A stretch of DNA of 64,000 nt from Escherichia coli (GTDB lineage: Bacteria > Pseudomonadota > Gammaproteobacteria > Enterobacterales > Enterobacteriaceae). The notes below the pieces were generated by a model. That model was not told where the DNA came from, made no database searches, and saw nothing but the letters and a program-made list of their open reading frames with translations. The translations under genes and the position numbers were made by a program. Of this stretch, positions 463 through 9,454 are shown one piece after another; within the stretch, counting starts at the first letter, position 1, and every line of letters starts with the position of its first letter. The stretch lies in the NCBI RefSeq assembly GCF_003018255.1, contig NZ_CP027440.1, one strand, 5' to 3'.

Positions 463-1753
463 CAGGGAAAGATCACGTAACGCTGCTTTTTTGCACTAAA
501 TAATTCGCATTTTATGTTTAAAAATTGAGATATTCCTCATTACCTGAAGCTGTTTTTTATTGCGTATACATGTTCAAATACTCCTTACATAATTAAGGAG
601 AACAAAATGGAACTTAAAAAATTGATGGAACATATTTCTGTTATCCCCGATTACAGACAAGCCTGGAAAGTGGAACATAAATTGTCGGATATTCTACTGT
701 TGACTATTTGTGCCGTTATTTCTGGTGCAGAAGGCTGGGAAGATATAGAGGATTTTGGGGAAACACATCTCGATTTTTTGAAGCAATATGGTGATTTTGA
801 AAATGGTATTCCTGTTCACGATACCATTGCCAGAGTTGTATCCTGTATCAGTCCTGCAAAATTTCACGAGTGCTTTATTAACTGGATGCGTGACTGCCAT
901 TCTTCAGATGATAAAGACGTTATTGCAATTGATGGAAAAACGCTCCGGCATTCTTATGACAAGAGTCGCCGCAGGGGAGCGATTCATGTCATTAGTGCGT
1001 TCTCAACAATGCACAGTCTGGTCATCGGACAGATCAGGACGGATGAGAAATCCAATGAGATCACAGCTATCCCAGAACTTCTTAACATGATGGATATTAA
1101 AGGAAAAATCATCACAACTGATGCGATGGGTTGCCAGAAAGATATCGCAGATAAGATACAAAAACAGGGCGGTGATTATTTATTCGCTGTAAAAGGAAAT
1201 CAGGGGCGGCTTAATAAAGCCTTTGAGGAAAATTTCCCACTGAAAGAATTAAATAATCCAGAGCATGACAGTTACGCAATTAGTGAAAAAAGTCACGGCA
1301 GAGAAGAAATCCGTCTTCATATTGTTTGCGATGTCCCTGATGAACTTATTGATTTCATGTTTGAATGGAAAGGTCTGAAGAAATTATGCGTGGCAGTCTC
1401 CTTTCGGTCAATAATAGCAGAACAAAAGAAAGAGCCAGAAATGACGGTCAGATATTATATCAGTTCTGCTGATTTAACCGCAGAGAAGTTCGCCACAGCA
1501 ATCCGAAACCACTGGCACGTGGAGAATAAGCTGCACTGGCGTCTGGACGTGGTAATGAATGAAGACGACTGCAAAATAAGAAGAGGAAATGCAGCAGAAT
1601 TATTTTCAGGGATACGGCACATCGCTATTAATATTTTAACGAATGATAATGTATTCAAGGCAGGGTTAAGACGTAAGATGCGAAAAGCAGCCATGGACAG
1701 AAACTACCTGGCGTCAGTCCTTGCGGGGAGCGGGCTTTCGTAATCTTTCCCTG
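463..1753 (+). mobile_element. ISAs1-family (H-repeat type) insertion sequence, copy 1, 1291 bp
   Basis: Imperfect terminal inverted repeats CAGGGAAAGATCACG (left, from 463) and CGTAATCTTTCCCTG (right, ending 1753); single 378-aa transposase ORF; near-identical second copy at 7125..8415. Confidence 0.8.
607..1743 (+). CDS. ISAs1-family DDE transposase (H-repeat-associated protein, YdcC/YhhI-like), 378 aa
   Basis: Protein begins [11 protein letters not shown] and carries the [13 protein letters not shown] region typical of H-rpt proteins; SD AAGGAG 7 nt upstream of ATG. Confidence 0.85.
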
Positions 1754-2359
1754 AACACCGAGGTGCTGAATAACCGCACCACGGATGTGATAAACAACCA
1801 TGCTGAGACCATCGGCAACAATCAGGTGATTGCGGTTACCAACAATCAGATACAGACGGTGGGCGTTAACCAGATAGAGACGGTGGGCAGTAACCAGATC
1901 ATTAAAGTGGGCTCTGTTCAGGTGGAAACGATTGGACTTGTTCGTGCGCTGACCGTGGGCGTGGCGTATCAGACGACGGTAGGTGGCATTATGAACACCT
2001 CGGTGGCCCTGATGCAGTCCTCGCAGATCGGTTTGCATAAATCGTTGATGGTCGGGCTGGGTTATGACGTCAAAGTCGGAAATAACGTTACCTTCACCGT
2101 TGGTAAAACGAAAAAGGATGATACCGGACAGACCGCGATTTACTCCGCCGGTGAGCATCTGGAACTCTGCTGTGGTAAGGCAAGGCTGGTGCTGACTAAG
2201 GACGGACAAATTTTTCTCAACGGCACAAAAATTCATTTGCAGGGTAAGGAGCAGGTTAATGGTGACTCACTGTTGATTAACTGGAACTGTGCAGCCTCGA
2301 AATCCCCACCGAAGACCCCTGATGAAAAGCAGGATACGCCGGATATGAGAGAGTACTGA
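1754..2359 (+). pseudogene. vgrG: vgrG 3' remnant (T6SS spike C-terminal repeat region), 5' part removed at the IS right end
   Basis: Translation shows VgrG-type repeats (VGVNQIETVGSNQIIKVGSVQVETIG); the track ORF start at 1721 lies inside the IS, so there is no native start. Confidence 0.65.
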
Positions 2360-2425: not shown

Positions 2426-5400
2426 ATGAGCGGAAAACCAGCGGCGCGTCAGGGAGATATGACTCAGTATGGCGGTCCCATTGTCCAGGGTTCGGCAGGT
2501 GTAAGAATTGGCGCGCCCACCGGCGTGGCGTGCTCGGTGTGTCCGGGCGGGATGACTTCGGGCAACCCGGTAAATCCGCTGCTGGGGGCGAAGGTGCTGC
2601 CCGGCGAGACGGACCTTGCGCTGCCCGGCCCGCTGCCGTTCATTCTCTCCCGCACCTACAGCAGCTACCGGACGAAGACGCCTGCGCCGGTGGGGATTTT
2701 TGGCCCCGGCTGGAAAGCGCCTTCTGATATCCGCTTACAGATACGCGATGATGCACTGGTACTCAACGACAACGGCGGACGGAGCATTCACTTTGAGCCG
2801 CTGCTGCCGGGTGAGGCGGTGTACAGCCGCAGCGAGTCAATGTGGCTGGTGCGCGGTGGTAAGGCAGCGCAGCCGGACGGCCACACGCTGGGGCGGCTGT
2901 GGGGGGCGCTGCCGCCGGATATCCGGTTAAGCCCGCATCTTTACCTGGCGACCAGCAGCGCACAGGGACCGTGGTGGATACTGGGGTGGTCAGAGCGGGT
3001 GCCGGGTGCTGAGGACGTACTGCCAGCGCCGCTGCCGCCGTACCGGGTGCTGACGGGGCTGGCGGACCGCTTCGGGCGGACGCTGACGTACCGGCGTGAG
3101 GCCGCCGGCGACCTGGCCGGGGAAATCACCGGCGTGACGGACGGTGCCGGGCGTGAGTTCCGTCTGGTGCTGACCACGCAGGCGCAGCGTGCGGAAGAGG
3201 CCCGCACCTCTTCGCTATCTTCTTCTGACCGTCCCCGCCCTCTCTCAGTCTCAGCGTTCCCCGACACACTGCCCGGTACCGAATACGGCCCCGACAGGGG
3301 TATCCGCCTTTCGGCGGTGTGGCTGATGCACGACCCGGCATACCCGGAGAGCCTGCCCGGTGCGCCACTGGTGCGGTACACGTATACGGAAGCCGGTGAA
3401 CTGCTGGCGGTATATGACCGCAGCAATACGCAGGTGCGCGCTTTCACGTATGACGCGCAGCACCCGGGCCGGATGGTGGCGCACCGTTACGCGGGAAGGC
3501 CGGAGATGCGCTACCGCTACGACGATGCGGGGCGGGTGGTGGAGCAGCTGAACCCGGCAGGCCTGAGTTACCGCTACCAGTATGAGCAGGACCGCATCAC
3601 CGTCACCGACAGCCTGAACCGGCGTGAGGTGCTGCATACAGAAGGCGGGGCCGGGCTGAAGCGGGTGGTGAAAAAAGAACTGGCGGACGGCAGCGTCACG
3701 CACAGCGGGTATGACGCGGCAGGAAGGCTCACGGCACAGACGGACGCGGCGGGACGGCGGACAGAGTACGGCCTGAATGTGGTGTCCGGCGATATCACGG
3801 ATATCACCACGCCGGACGGGCGGGAGACGAAATTTTACTATAACGACGGGAACCAGTTAACGGCGGTGGTGTACCCGGACGGGCTGGAGAGCAGCCGGGC
3901 ATATGATGAGCTGGACAGACTGGTATCGGAGACATCGCGCAGCGGGGAGACAGTACGCTACCGCTACGATGACGTGCACAGTGAGTTACCGGCGACGACA
4001 ACGGATGCGACGGGCAGCACCCGGCAGATGACCTGGAGCCGCTACGGGCAGTTGCTGGCCTTCACCGACTGCTCGGGCTACCAGACCCGCTATGAATACG
4101 ACCGCTTCGGCCAGATGACGGCGGTTCACCGCGAGGAAGGTATCAGCCTTTACCGCCACTATGACAACCGTGGCCGGTTAACCTCGGTGAAAGACGCACA
4201 GGGCCGTGAAACGCAGTATGAGTACAACGCCGCAGGCGACCTGACTGCCGTTATCACCCCGGACGGCAACCGGAGCGAGACACAGTACGATGCGTGGGGA
4301 AAGGCGGTCAGCACCACGCAGGGCGGGCTGACGCGCAGTATGGAGTACGATGCTGCCGGACGTGTCATCAGCCTGACCAACGAGAACGGCAGTCACAGCG
4401 ACTTCAGCTACGATGCGCTGGACCGCCTGGTACAGCAGGGCGGCTTTGACGGGCGGACGCAACGTTATCATTATGACCTGACCGGAAAACTCACGCAGAG
4501 TGAAGATGAGGGGCTTGTCATCCTCTGGTACTACGATGAATCGGACCGTATCACTCACCGCACGGTGAACGGCGAACCGGCAGAGCAGTGGCAGTATGAT
4601 GGCCACGGCTGGCTGAGAGAAATCAGCCACCTGAGCGAAGGCCACCGTGTTGCCGTCCACTATGGCTACGACGATAAGGGCCGTCTGACCGGGGAGCGCC
4701 AGACGGTGGAGAACCCGGAGACGGGGGAACTGCTGTGGCAGCATGAGACGAAACAGGCATACAACGAACAGGGGCTGGCAAACCGCGTCACGCCGGACAG
4801 CCTGCCGCCGGTGGAGTGGCTGGCCTATGGCAGCGGTTATCTGGCGGGCATGAAGCTGGGCGGGACGCCGCTGCTGGAGTACATGCGGGACAGACTGCAC
4901 CGGGAGACGGTGCGCAGCTTCGGCAGCATGGCAGGCAATACAGCCGCATATGAACTGACCAGCACTTACACCCCCGCAGGCCAGTTACAGAGCCGGCACC
5001 TGAACAGCCTGGTGTTTGATTGTGACTATAACTGGAATGACAACGGCGACCTGATGCGCATCAGCGGCCCGCGACAGACGCGGGAATACGGCTACAGCGC
5101 CACGGGCAGGCTGGAGAGCGTGCGCACCCTCGCACCGGACCTGGACATCCGCATCCCGTATGCCACCGACCCGGCGGGCAACCGGCTGCCGGACCCGGAG
5201 CTGCACCCGGACAGTACACTCACAGTGTGGCCGGATAACCGAATCACCGAAGACGCGCACTACCTGTACCGTTACGATGAATACGGCAGGCTGGCGGAGA
5301 AGACGGACCGCATCCCGGCGGGTGTGATACGGACGGACGACGAGCGGACCCACCACTACCACTACGACAGCCAGCACCGCCTGGTGTTCTATACGCGGAT

Positions 5401-6586
5401 ACAGCATGGCGAGCCACTGGTCGAGAGCCGCTACCTTTACGACCCGCTGGGCCGCCGGACGGGTAAACGGGTATGGCGGCGGGAGCGTGACCTGACGGGG
5501 TGGATGTCGCTGTCGCGTAAACCGGAGGTGACGTGGTACGGCTGGGACGGCGACCACCTGACGACGGTGCAGACCGACACCACGCGTATCCAGACGGTAT
5601 ATCAGCCGGGGAGCTTCGCGCCGCTCATCCGCATCGAAACAGACAACGGTGAGCGGGAGAAAGCGCAGCGCCGCAGCCTGGCGGAGAAGCTGCAGCAGGA
5701 AGGGAGCGAGGACGGGCACGGCGTGGTATTTCCGGCTGAACTGGTGCGGCTGCTGGACAGACTGGAGGAAGAAATCCGGGCAGACCGCGTGAGCAGTGAA
5801 AGCCGGGCGTGGCTTGCGCAGTGCGGGCTGACGGTGGAGCAACTGGAAAAACAGGTGGAGCCGGAATACACACCGGCGCGAAAAGTTCATCTTTACCACT
5901 GCGACCACCGGGGACTGCCGCTGGCGCTTATCAGCGAAGACGGCAATACGGTGTGGAGCGCGGAGTATGATGAATGGGGAAACCTGCTTAATGAGGAGAA
6001 CCCGCATCATGTGTATCAGTCATACCGTCTGCCGGGGCAGCAGCATGATGAGGAGTCGGGGCTGTACTACAACCGGAACCGGTACTACGATCCGTTGCAG
6101 GGGCGGTATATCATCCAGGACCCGATAGGGCTGGCGGGGGGAATAAACCCGTACAGTTATGTTATGAACAATCCTGTGCAATGGATTGATCCATTGGGAT
6201 TAGCTCATACTTCAGGAAAATGGAAGGACTGTGGTAAAGGTTGTCGAATCCGAATAGATGGCGATGCTGTTGGTGACGGAAGACATTTGCATTGGGAGTG
6301 TAAAAATGGGAGTGGTGTAATGGGGGAATTTGGAGGTATGTCCCATGGTGAGGATTACTCATCAGCACCAAATAGCATTAAGAAATGTGCAAAAAAATAT
6401 GGTTTCGAGCCAGAACCAAGTAAAGATCTGTCATGCAAAACCTCCGGGCTATCAACTACTGATGCGGCTCTTGCAACTGGTGCTACAATTGGCGCAGGGT
6501 ATGTTATATATAGAGTGATTCGATTTATACCTTCACTTGCACCACCTCTTTGGTGGTCAATACCTGCAAACGTTGTTACTCCATGA
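2426..6586 (+). CDS. rhsE: Rhs family polymorphic toxin, full length (1386 aa): N-terminal domain, YD-repeat shell, PxxxxDPxGL motifs, divergent C-terminal tip
   Basis: N-terminus [31 protein letters not shown] and many YD repeats; DPIGLAGG at ~6120-6140 and WIDPLGL at ~6184-6204; GC-rich core then AT-rich ~125-aa tip; SD GAAGAAGGA upstream. Symbol is by position only. Confidence 0.85.
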
Positions 6587-6957
6587 TTAAAACGGATAAT
6601 GGAGATTATATAATGAGCGATTTTGACATTGTGAGTTCAATTGACTGGCATGATGGGGTTTTGTTAGAAGTAAAAACGACATTCAAAGAATCTCATTTTA
6701 ACATGACGTTATTTATTGACATTTATAAAAATGAGAACATTAGGGAAAAAATGATAGTTGAATTTTCTGATGTAGATGATTTAGTGTTCGCTATGGATTC
6801 TGCTGAGTTAATCGATAATCACAAGTCAGGTAATATAAGTAATGGGTATGTAAAGAAATTAAAAAACAAAAGGATATATAAATTTTTTCTTTATTTTTCT
6901 GATGGCTTATTAAGCATGACATTTAAAAATTTACAATTAATAAAACCATTAGAGTAA
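6583..6957 (+). CDS. putative cognate Rhs immunity protein (RhsI-like, ~124 aa)
   Basis: ATG overlaps the rhs TGA stop (ATGA) around 6583-6586; AT-rich like the toxin tip; no hydrophobic segment. Start could instead be 6550 or 6613. Confidence 0.6.
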
Positions 6958-7021: not shown

Positions 7022-7124
7022 AATCTTGGTTTCACCTTGTTGATTTGATTAAAATTTAATCGCCAAATAATTAAATATATTAGAAAAGGACGTCTGGTGA
7101 ACATTCAAAGTCTTCTTGAGCATA

Positions 7125-8415
7125 CAGGGAAAGATCATCAGAAGTACACTTTTTGTACTAAATAATTCGCATTTTATGTTTAAAAATTGAGATATTCCTC
7201 ATTACCTAAAGCTGTTTTTTATTGCTTATACATGATCAAATACTCCTTACATAATTAAGGAGAACAAAATGGAACTTAAAAAATTGATGGGACATATTTC
7301 TATTATCCCCGATTACAGACAAACCTGGAAAGTGGAACATAAATTGTCAGATATTCTACTGTTGATTATTAGTGCCGTTATTTCTGGTGCAGAAGGCTGG
7401 GAAGATATAGAGGATTTTGGGGAAACACATCTCGATTTTTTAAAGCAATATGGTGATTTTAAAAATGGTATTCCTGTTCACGATACCATTGCCAGAGTTG
7501 TATCCTGTATCAGTCCTGCAAAATTTCACGAGTGCTTTATTAACTGGATGCGTGACTGCCATTCTTCAGATGATAAAGACGTCATTGCAATTGATGGAAA
7601 AACGCTCCGGCATTCTTATGACAAGAGTCGTCGCAGGGGAGCGATTCATGTCATTAGTGCATTCTCAACAATGCACAGTCTGGTCATCGGACAGATCAGG
7701 ACGGATGAGAAATCTAATGAGATTACAGCTATCCCTGAACTTCTTAACATGCTGGACATTAAAGGAAAAATTATCACAACTGATGCGATGGGTTGCCAGA
7801 AAGATATTGCAGAGAAGATACAAAAACAGGGAGGTGATTATTTATTCTCTGTAAAAGGAAACCCGGGGCGGCTGAATAAAGCTTTTGAGGAAAAATTTCC
7901 ACTGAAAGAATTAAATAATCCAGAGCATGACAGTTACGCAATTAGTGAAAAGAGTCACGGCAGAGAAGAAATCCGTCTTCACATTGTTTGCGATGTCCCT
8001 GATGAACTTATTGATTTCACGTTTGAATGGAAAGGTCTGAAGAAATTATGCGTGGCAGTCTCCTTTCGGTCAATAATAGCAGAACAAAAGAAAGAGCCAG
8101 AAATGACGGTCAGATATTATATCAGTTCTGCTGATTTAACCGCAGAGATGTTCGCCACAGCAATCCGAAACCACTGGCACGTGGAGAATAAGCTGCACTG
8201 GCGTCTGGACGTGGTAATGAATGAAGACGACTGCAAAATAAGAAGAGGAAACGCCGCAGAATTATTTTCAGGGATACGGCACATCGCTATTAATATTTTA
8301 ACGAATGATAAGGTATTCAAGGCAGGGTTAAGACGTAAGATGCGAAAAGCAGCCATGGACAAAAACTATCTGGCGTCAGTCCTTGCGGGGAGCGGGCTTT
8401 CGTAATCTTTCCCTG
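7125..8415 (+). mobile_element. ISAs1-family (H-repeat type) insertion sequence, copy 2, 1291 bp, same orientation as copy 1
   Basis: Same terminal repeats (CAGGGAAAGATCA ... CGTAATCTTTCCCTG) and same length as copy 1; internal sequence near-identical with scattered substitutions. Confidence 0.8.
7269..8405 (+). CDS. ISAs1-family DDE transposase (H-repeat-associated protein), 378 aa, copy 2
   Basis: Same length and register as 607..1743 with several substitutions (e.g. [15 protein letters not shown] vs [15 protein letters not shown]). Confidence 0.85.
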
Positions 8416-8419
8416 TATT

Positions 8420-8707
8420 GTGAAATCATCAAGAGTACATATAGATCATGATAAAGATATTTTTGATGGCCTTGACAAAATCTTGGCTTTTTCCGATAAA
8501 AATAAGCATGAGTATTTTTTATATATAAAGGCATATTGGCTCAGTTTATACTTTTGTGAAATTTCTCAGAAAGTGAGAGAAAGAGATAAGTTGTCATTTT
8601 ATTATGATGAATTTTCTGTCCGATTTCCTAATGTTGTCCTATATCCGACATACTTCCAATTGCATGGTTTAGCATCTGAAAAGTCATTGTTAATTCGAGA
8701 CGCTTGA
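8420..8707 (+). pseudogene. AT-rich ORF abutting the IS right end; possible orphan Rhs immunity remnant
   Basis: 95-aa ORF begins 5 bp after the IS end; composition resembles the immunity gene; no convincing native start context. Confidence 0.3.
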
Positions 8708-8986
8708 TTGTCCACTATATCAAAATAGTCATGCCCCGGAATTTTCTCACATTAGTCCATAAGGGATTCAATTTTTGTAATTGCACCCTGAAAAAACCGC
8801 AAAAGTGCTTTGTCGTGTCCTGTCGCAATGAAGTCTGGTGTTAATGTTATACTTTAATTGATATTTAAAGAGATGGCTTCTTTGCTTATATAAATACCCA
8901 TCTATTCTTTCTCAAAAATATTGGCTCAGATTAACCATGTTCCACGCAAACAATTTTCAAACATTCATCAATAGATAAGGAATTCC

Positions 8987-9454
8987 ATGATTATACGACC
9001 AGTCAAACCTTCAGATGTTGAACCATTACTGGATATGCTGCTTGCCAGTGGACAATTTAATCAAGATGGCCTTCATCATGTACAAAAAACACTAACACAT
9101 TATTTCTCAGGTCAATCTGCCGATTTATGGTTTAGTGCAGAACACTTAGGACTGGCAGGGATTGCCTATTGCGCTCCTGAAGTGATGACAAATGATGTCT
9201 GGAATTTATTAATGCACTGGATCAGTCCTTCCCATCAGCGCCAGGGAGTGGGACATCTGCTGATTAACGAAATAGAAAAGGAGCTCACAATTAAACAGGC
9301 AAGACTACTTTTAGTAGAGACCTCCAGCTATGTCGATTTTAGTGCCGCCCGCGCATTTTATACATAACAGGGCTTTATCAATGAAGCTATAATACGCAAT
9401 TACTATGATGTTGGTGAGGATAAATTAATCTTCACTAAAAATATGCAATCGTGA
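8987..9454 (+). pseudogene. GNAT-family N-acetyltransferase with an in-frame TAA (9365-9367); reading frame continues 28 codons to TGA at 9452-9454
   Basis: SD AAGG 7 nt upstream; acetyl-CoA motif QRQGVGH; the stop sits where GNAT motif B expects a lysine (AFYT-stop-QGF). Confidence 0.65.

Follow-up and report, generated by a model that had tools for sequence, protein, structure and literature searches.

The AT-rich segment at positions 8416-8707 (+ strand) of the 64,000-nucleotide stretch of the Escherichia coli chromosome analyzed here (the window) is very probably a non-functional 3' remnant, comprising the last ~40%, of an orphan gene that most likely encoded an immunity protein against EndoU-type RNase toxins. 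The window spans the yncH - rhs island - yddH - nhoA - yddE - narVWYZ region, and the island is composed, in order, of ISAs1 copy 1, a vgrG remnant, the Rhs core gene, a presumed rhsI, ISAs1 copy 2, the ORF under study, a GNAT acetyltransferase gene and yddH.

The sequence-only reading had pointed to an AT-rich ORF of 95 codons directly after the second IS copy, and this ORF is real (8420..8707, + strand, GTG start), with a GC content of 31.2%, whereas the window as a whole has 48.9% and the Rhs core 63.8%. Its length by itself is only mildly unusual, as 153 of 5000 shuffles of the 571-nt spacer (3%) contained 95 or more consecutive codons free of stops in at least one of the six frames. Neither an ATG nor a Shine-Dalgarno sequence was found before the GTG, and the frame differs from that of the transposase and meets stops upstream. 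The Rfam scan and the promoter/terminator scan of 8300-9100 returned nothing relevant, with no promoter-like site on the + strand of this interval. The window is 100% identical to strains DETEC-S792, JNE23-011 and JNE112863 over the 581 bp queried, and no RefSeq annotation covers the ORF in identical strains.

A megablast search of 5426 complete E. coli genomes with window positions 8410-8990 revealed that some strains hold the same DNA inside an annotated CDS of 220 amino acids. In the reverse comparison, tblastn of the intact protein against the window matched positions 8417-8680 with 92% identity over residues 130-217 (E = 3e-51), and the nucleotide identity between the remnant and the intact gene is about 95%. 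This homology settles the question of a chance origin: although 3% of composition-matched shuffles reach such a stop-free run, a fortuitous ORF in an AT-rich spacer would hardly be expected to resemble so closely an intact gene at the same locus, and we regard that explanation as practically dismissed. Alignment to the intact alleles of strains GF4-3, PT62 and 118UI showed that the native coding sequence picks up again at 8416 (TATTGT...), immediately after the IS end at 8415, whereas the mechanically called ORF is 8420-8707; the proposed start of the ORF 5 bp past the right end of the second IS copy thus proved accurate. The suspected lack of a native start was likewise borne out, since the GTG corresponds to codon Val131 in the interior of the parent gene and is preceded by IS DNA with in-frame stops. 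The intact alleles read GTA at this codon; the two remnant alleles that were aligned (those of the window and of strain 1190) read GTG. At the other end, the A-run 8679-8682 has an extra A, with the result that the frame runs past the native TAA (8691-8693) to a TGA at 8705-8707 and the native tail ESHC is replaced by EKSLLIRDA; according to the protein alignment, the affected tail belongs to a non-conserved, E. coli-specific extension. A premature stop in the remnant of strain 1190 was considered as a further sign of decay and rejected, because it corresponds to the natural stop of the 211-aa allele that is intact in 118UI.

The longer version that was to be looked for in other strains was therefore found, as a gene of 211-220 aa of which the window ORF represents residues 130-217. 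It is present at full length in 194 of the 5426 complete genomes (4% of E. coli), at the same yncG-yddH locus, while any part of it occurs in 237 genomes, invariably as a single copy at this locus, and a truncated copy in about 43. Of the eight truncated genomes listed, seven match the gene from nt 387 onwards and the remaining one (GF43), where the remnant has been eroded further, from nt 442. In the Rhs-less strains GF4-3 and PT62, yncG is followed by four or five small hypothetical genes, the 220-aa gene, the GNAT gene and yddH. Homology between the Rhs-bearing and Rhs-less arrangements ends at the end of yncG and resumes exactly at window position 8416, equivalent to position 9001 of the L002 contig and 9007 of the L001 contig, in the middle of the 220-aa gene.

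The breakpoint coincides with the right end of the second of two ISAs1 copies, which are 96.3% identical to each other over 1293 bp. Copy 1 (463..1753, + strand, transposase 607-1743) truncates vgrG with its right end, removing the N-terminus, and copy 2 (7125..8415, + strand, transposase 7269-8405; an H-repeat, ydcC-like) truncates the immunity gene in the same manner. Copy 2 is an ISAs1-family element, as both transposase domains (Pfam DDE_Tnp_1_assoc and DDE_Tnp_1; E = 1e-28 and 7e-32) and terminal inverted repeats (CAGGGAAAGAT / ATCTTTCCCTG) are present, and RefSeq names its product in DETEC-S792 an 'ISAs1 family transposase'. The right end ATCTTTCCCTG (CCCTG) lies at 8415, with an uncertainty of 3 nt, since a perfect 14-nt inverted repeat (7122-7135 / 8405-8418), which has an equivalent in copy 1, reaches position 8418. 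No target-site duplication was detected at either IS copy: copy 2 is flanked by CTTGAGCATA and TATTGTGAAA, and the sequences bordering copy 1 do not match these either. This absence favours a rearrangement or deletion at the IS boundary over a simple insertion, so that of the earlier proposal of a gene interrupted by the IS, truncation at the ISAs1 right end holds and simple insertion is the less likely route.

Further, the two ISAs1 copies bracket the vgrG remnant, rhs and rhsI in the manner of a composite transposon. In strain 118UI, the order is yncG, an ISAs1 left-end fragment (L012:3835-3988), PAAR, VgrG, peptidase M35, a hypothetical gene, the right-hand part of ISAs1 (8511-8982), a 186-aa gene and then the intact 211-aa allele, the ISAs1 right end being located about 1.4 kb further to the left, before the 186-aa gene. 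The module of PAAR, VgrG, M35 and immunity genes lying between ISAs1 pieces in such ST131-like strains indicates that ISAs1 ends recur as module boundaries. As judged from the missing target-site duplication, a rearrangement at the ISAs1 right end would have removed the upstream ~386 bp of the gene together with its start codon and promoter region, most likely as an IS-adjacent deletion or as an IS-mediated replacement that brought in the truncated vgrG-rhs-rhsI module, and the same event would also have removed the 186-aa gene. It may have occurred when, or after, this module between two ISAs1 copies took over the site, leaving a fragment with neither start codon nor ribosome-binding site that would since have gained the frameshift in its tail. 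A single truncation event is suggested by the common breakpoint and by the GTA-to-GTG change that both aligned remnant alleles have.

Within the island, the vgrG 3' remnant (1754..2359, + strand; Pfam Gp5_trimer_C, N-terminus missing, a RefSeq pseudogene) is followed by a gene for a 1386-aa Rhs core protein with a Tox-WTIP C-terminal tip (2426..6586, + strand) and by a small AT-rich gene (6613..6957, + strand) which, from its position, is presumed to encode the cognate RhsI of the resident toxin. The latter comprises 114 aa in RefSeq, while a 135-aa ORF begins at 6550, and it has no family match in Pfam or NCBIfam. As the resident tip is Tox-WTIP and not EndoU, the remnant and this toxin are not a cognate pair. 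To the right, the GNAT gene (8987..9367, + strand) forms a conserved border shared with the Rhs-less strains. It encodes 126 aa after a nonsense codon (AAA-to-TAA at codon 127, stop 9365-9367), compared with 155 aa in strain PT62; GF4-3 carries another truncation (108 aa), and decay of this gene seems to be under way in several lineages.

The 186-aa neighbour of the intact gene (L002:7696-8256 in GF4-3) belongs to no Pfam family. Its Citrobacter homolog starts 2 bp after a 1481-aa protein that comes after VgrG and DUF2169, and its E. coli homolog 2 bp after an orphan Rhs C-terminal fragment (homologs at L021:7001-7534 and L023:6159-6716). Because its homologs start 2 bp after Rhs proteins, the 186-aa gene can be considered a Rhs-type immunity homolog, i.e., a further candidate RhsI family, likewise uncatalogued and retained in orphan form, and the 186-aa and 220-aa genes would constitute an array of orphan immunity genes at the yddH-side end of the island. 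Three small AT-rich hypothetical genes (90, 108-110 and 129-140 aa; L002:6495-7588), located in Rhs-less strains between yncG and the orphan immunity genes and giving no family matches, may be more orphan immunity genes.

The link between the parent gene and EndoU toxins comes from its relatives. Homologs were found 9-16 bp downstream of an EndoU_bacteria toxin domain (PF14436) at four independent loci (five contigs), and they are co-oriented with the EndoU ORF upstream in L005/L006/L007, L010, L014, L016 and L018. The homolog from Pseudocitrobacter faecalis (L005/L006/L007; 65% identical) lies 16 bp after a 135-aa EndoU_bacteria (PF14436) ORF that closes a DUF2169 - Tox-PAAR-like T6SS effector cassette. 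The gene calls divide this effector (L005:3235-4400, also in L006 and L007) into two ORFs that overlap in different frames, of 272 aa and of 135 aa, the latter being the EndoU; the calls agree in three samples and could reflect a frameshifted or split effector. In Shigella flexneri (L010), the homolog is located 16 bp after an 88-aa ORF which represents a truncated EndoU tip (PF14436 positions 46-126 of 129, E = 1e-5) and is 71% identical to the Pseudocitrobacter toxin. The ~120 bp just upstream of this tip (L010:7600-7723) show 75-77% identity to E. coli vgrG 3' ends, with blastn matches in thousands of complete E. coli genomes, which hints at an orphan module cut out of a vgrG-linked effector. 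The more divergent P0022 homolog (L014 and L016; 31% identical) is positioned 14 bp after a Pyocin_S + EndoU tip, within an array of orphan toxin-tip/immunity pairs (a ColD tip with a colicin immunity gene, and others) that follows VgrG, DUF4123, a deaminase effector and SMI1. Finally, the P0024 homolog (L018; 25% identical) is found 9 bp after an EndoU ORF and is followed by RHS-repeat fragments. The homology search for Rhs- or CDI-linked immunity relatives thus returned homologs right after toxin domains in T6SS or Rhs contexts; none was found in a CDI context.

The five EndoU domains constitute one clade with 57-71% identity, and their partner proteins diverge to 25-65%. A toxin-then-partner order that is kept across wide divergence is an accepted signature of a cognate immunity gene, and its conservation here points to the family as most likely consisting of the cognate immunity proteins of this EndoU clade, a role for the parent protein that we infer from gene order. 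In E. coli itself, tblastn with three EndoU toxins detected nothing significant, whether across the 64-kb window or in the DNA preceding the intact gene, and the Shigella EndoU tip was not found when it was compared by blastn, together with the adjacent homolog, with all complete E. coli genomes; the E. albertii locus shows only a weak trace of a toxin tip at the right position (E about 1). Hence, of the upstream toxin-tip fragment that had been anticipated, a truncated EndoU tip exists in Shigella, and in E. coli no such fragment can be detected ahead of the intact gene. With no EndoU toxin in either place and a resident Rhs tip of the Tox-WTIP type, the E. coli copy is an orphan. The anticipated orphan immunity remnant at an Rhs locus is consequently supported by the EndoU-linked homologs, the intact allele and the distal position in the island.

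The parent family is enterobacterial and very small. It comprises 17 clusters in a search of 5.8 billion proteins (E. coli, E. albertii, Shigella and Pseudocitrobacter), and an exhaustive profile search through 1.84 billion proteins yielded 17 representatives. Pfam and NCBIfam scans (E <= 1) gave no meaningful match for the remnant, the intact protein and eight further members, PDB sequence searches and profile searches with two family alignments returned only noise, and no significant match was obtained to the catalogued EndoU-associated immunity families (SMI1_KNR4/SUKH, Imm28, Imm-SuFu, MafI and CdiI-STECO31). The intact protein is predicted to adopt an all-alpha fold of ~205 aa with 14 helices. 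The most conserved block of the family, AYWLSLYF, with invariant Y169, W170, L171, L173 and Y174, falls in the C-terminal part that is retained in the remnant and that is also the highest-confidence part of the model. Two members deserve separate mention: P0019 was not located on any contig, and P0021 (L020:7001-8206), a 401-aa protein of which residues 71-257 match the family, could be a fusion or a mis-called gene; it is encoded immediately behind flgN in a flagellar cluster, and no toxin lies close to it.

Some members are named 'aminopeptidase' in RefSeq and UniRef, and the intact E. coli gene stands without an adjacent toxin, both of which would suit the remnant of a housekeeping or enzyme gene that merely borders the Rhs island and has no connection with toxin immunity. 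This seems improbable for a gene whose product gave no peptidase domain, or any other, in the Pfam and NCBIfam scans (E <= 1), whose family is tiny and patchy (the above 17 representatives in 1.84e9 proteins, and 4% of E. coli), and which is AT-rich and repeatedly occurs 9-16 bp after EndoU toxin domains. The name is unsupported, as no Pfam, NCBIfam or PDB sequence relative was detected, and no recognisable peptidase domain or fold was found in the parent protein. The all-helical family of ~205 aa is instead, in our judgement, likely to be an undescribed immunity family specific to one clade of EndoU RNase toxins that T6SS PAAR/VgrG/Rhs effectors would deliver.

As for the remnant itself, the alignment and the model indicate that it is devoid of the N-terminal 129 residues, which correspond to about eight of the 14 helices. 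Retention of the AYWLSLYF block makes some residual activity conceivable, if only faintly so, and a fragment that still works, either as a mini-immunity protein or as a new small protein, and that owes its expression to read-through or to an outward ISAs1 promoter, could be argued from the preservation of the most conserved and best-modelled part and from the occurrence of the same junction, in two allele classes, in seven of the eight truncated genomes listed (of about 43). Such a fragment would have to be translated from a GTG with no Shine-Dalgarno sequence or ATG, in a frame that is out of register with the transposase and stops upstream, and transcribed where no promoter-like site is found on the + strand; its tail is frameshifted here and it is eroded further in GF43, and RefSeq leaves the locus unannotated in identical strains. 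We therefore consider it very improbable that the fragment is functional, and rate just as low the specific case in which it keeps toxin-binding activity and is expressed from the adjacent ISAs1. The segment is best regarded as a pseudogene remnant, because 129 residues, the start codon, the ribosome-binding site, a detectable + strand promoter and any RefSeq annotation are all missing.

For annotation, this reading assigns to a pseudogene the AT-rich DNA that follows the H-repeat of an rhsE-type island and is left unannotated, and it corrects a propagated misnomer, 'aminopeptidase'. What is new is of modest novelty, namely an uncatalogued and mis-named candidate EndoU immunity family, which would add one more to the immunity families of bacterial EndoU toxins, together with one more case in which orphan immunity arrays at T6SS effector islands are eroded at ISAs1/H-repeat boundaries. 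Both the occurrence of orphan immunity genes and their decay beside Rhs loci are well documented; the feature, an orphan immunity gene decaying at an Rhs/H-repeat boundary, is ordinary and leaves the current understanding unchanged.

A close point of comparison is the RhsE element of E. coli K-12 with its H-repeat (ydcC, ISAs1 family) at the yncH-yddH locus, in agreement with the RefSeq gene names. The island shares with it the chromosomal locus and the order vgrG, rhs, small downstream ORF and H-repeat/ISAs1, but unlike K-12 this lineage keeps the immunity remnant and the GNAT gene between the H-repeat and yddH. With respect to function, the known immunity partners of EndoU toxins include CdiI-STECO31 (PDB 5HKQ; PMC9086364) and MafI (PMC10469887, PMC4287609), as well as Imm28, SUKH/SMI1_KNR4 and Imm-SuFu (Zhang et al., 2012; PMC3482391). 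The parent protein would do the same job as these, its gene lying immediately 3' of a PF14436 EndoU_bacteria domain, although it shows no sequence similarity to them (Pfam scan of nine members, E <= 1; PDB profile searches). CdiI-STECO31 has been described as a mixed alpha/beta protein (PMC9086364), whereas the parent family is predicted to be all-alpha, and a PDB search with the partner EndoU toxin gave no match and hence no sequence link to CdiA-CT STECO31.

Orphan rhs-CT/rhsI and cdiA-CT/cdiI modules occur downstream of Rhs and CDI loci (Poole et al., 2011; PMC3150448), and immunity arrays formed by sequential displacement have been described at T6SS clusters (Kirchberger et al., 2017; PMC5361080). 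As in those systems, the gene described here is located at the distal end of a vgrG/rhs island beside another orphan Rhs-immunity homolog, is AT-rich with no cognate toxin next to it, and has relatives elsewhere that form pairs of a truncated toxin tip and an immunity gene. It differs from them in that the last 40% of the immunity gene survives, with no toxin-tip fragment in E. coli, and in that the truncation lies at an ISAs1 boundary instead of arising by displacement through rhs-core recombination.
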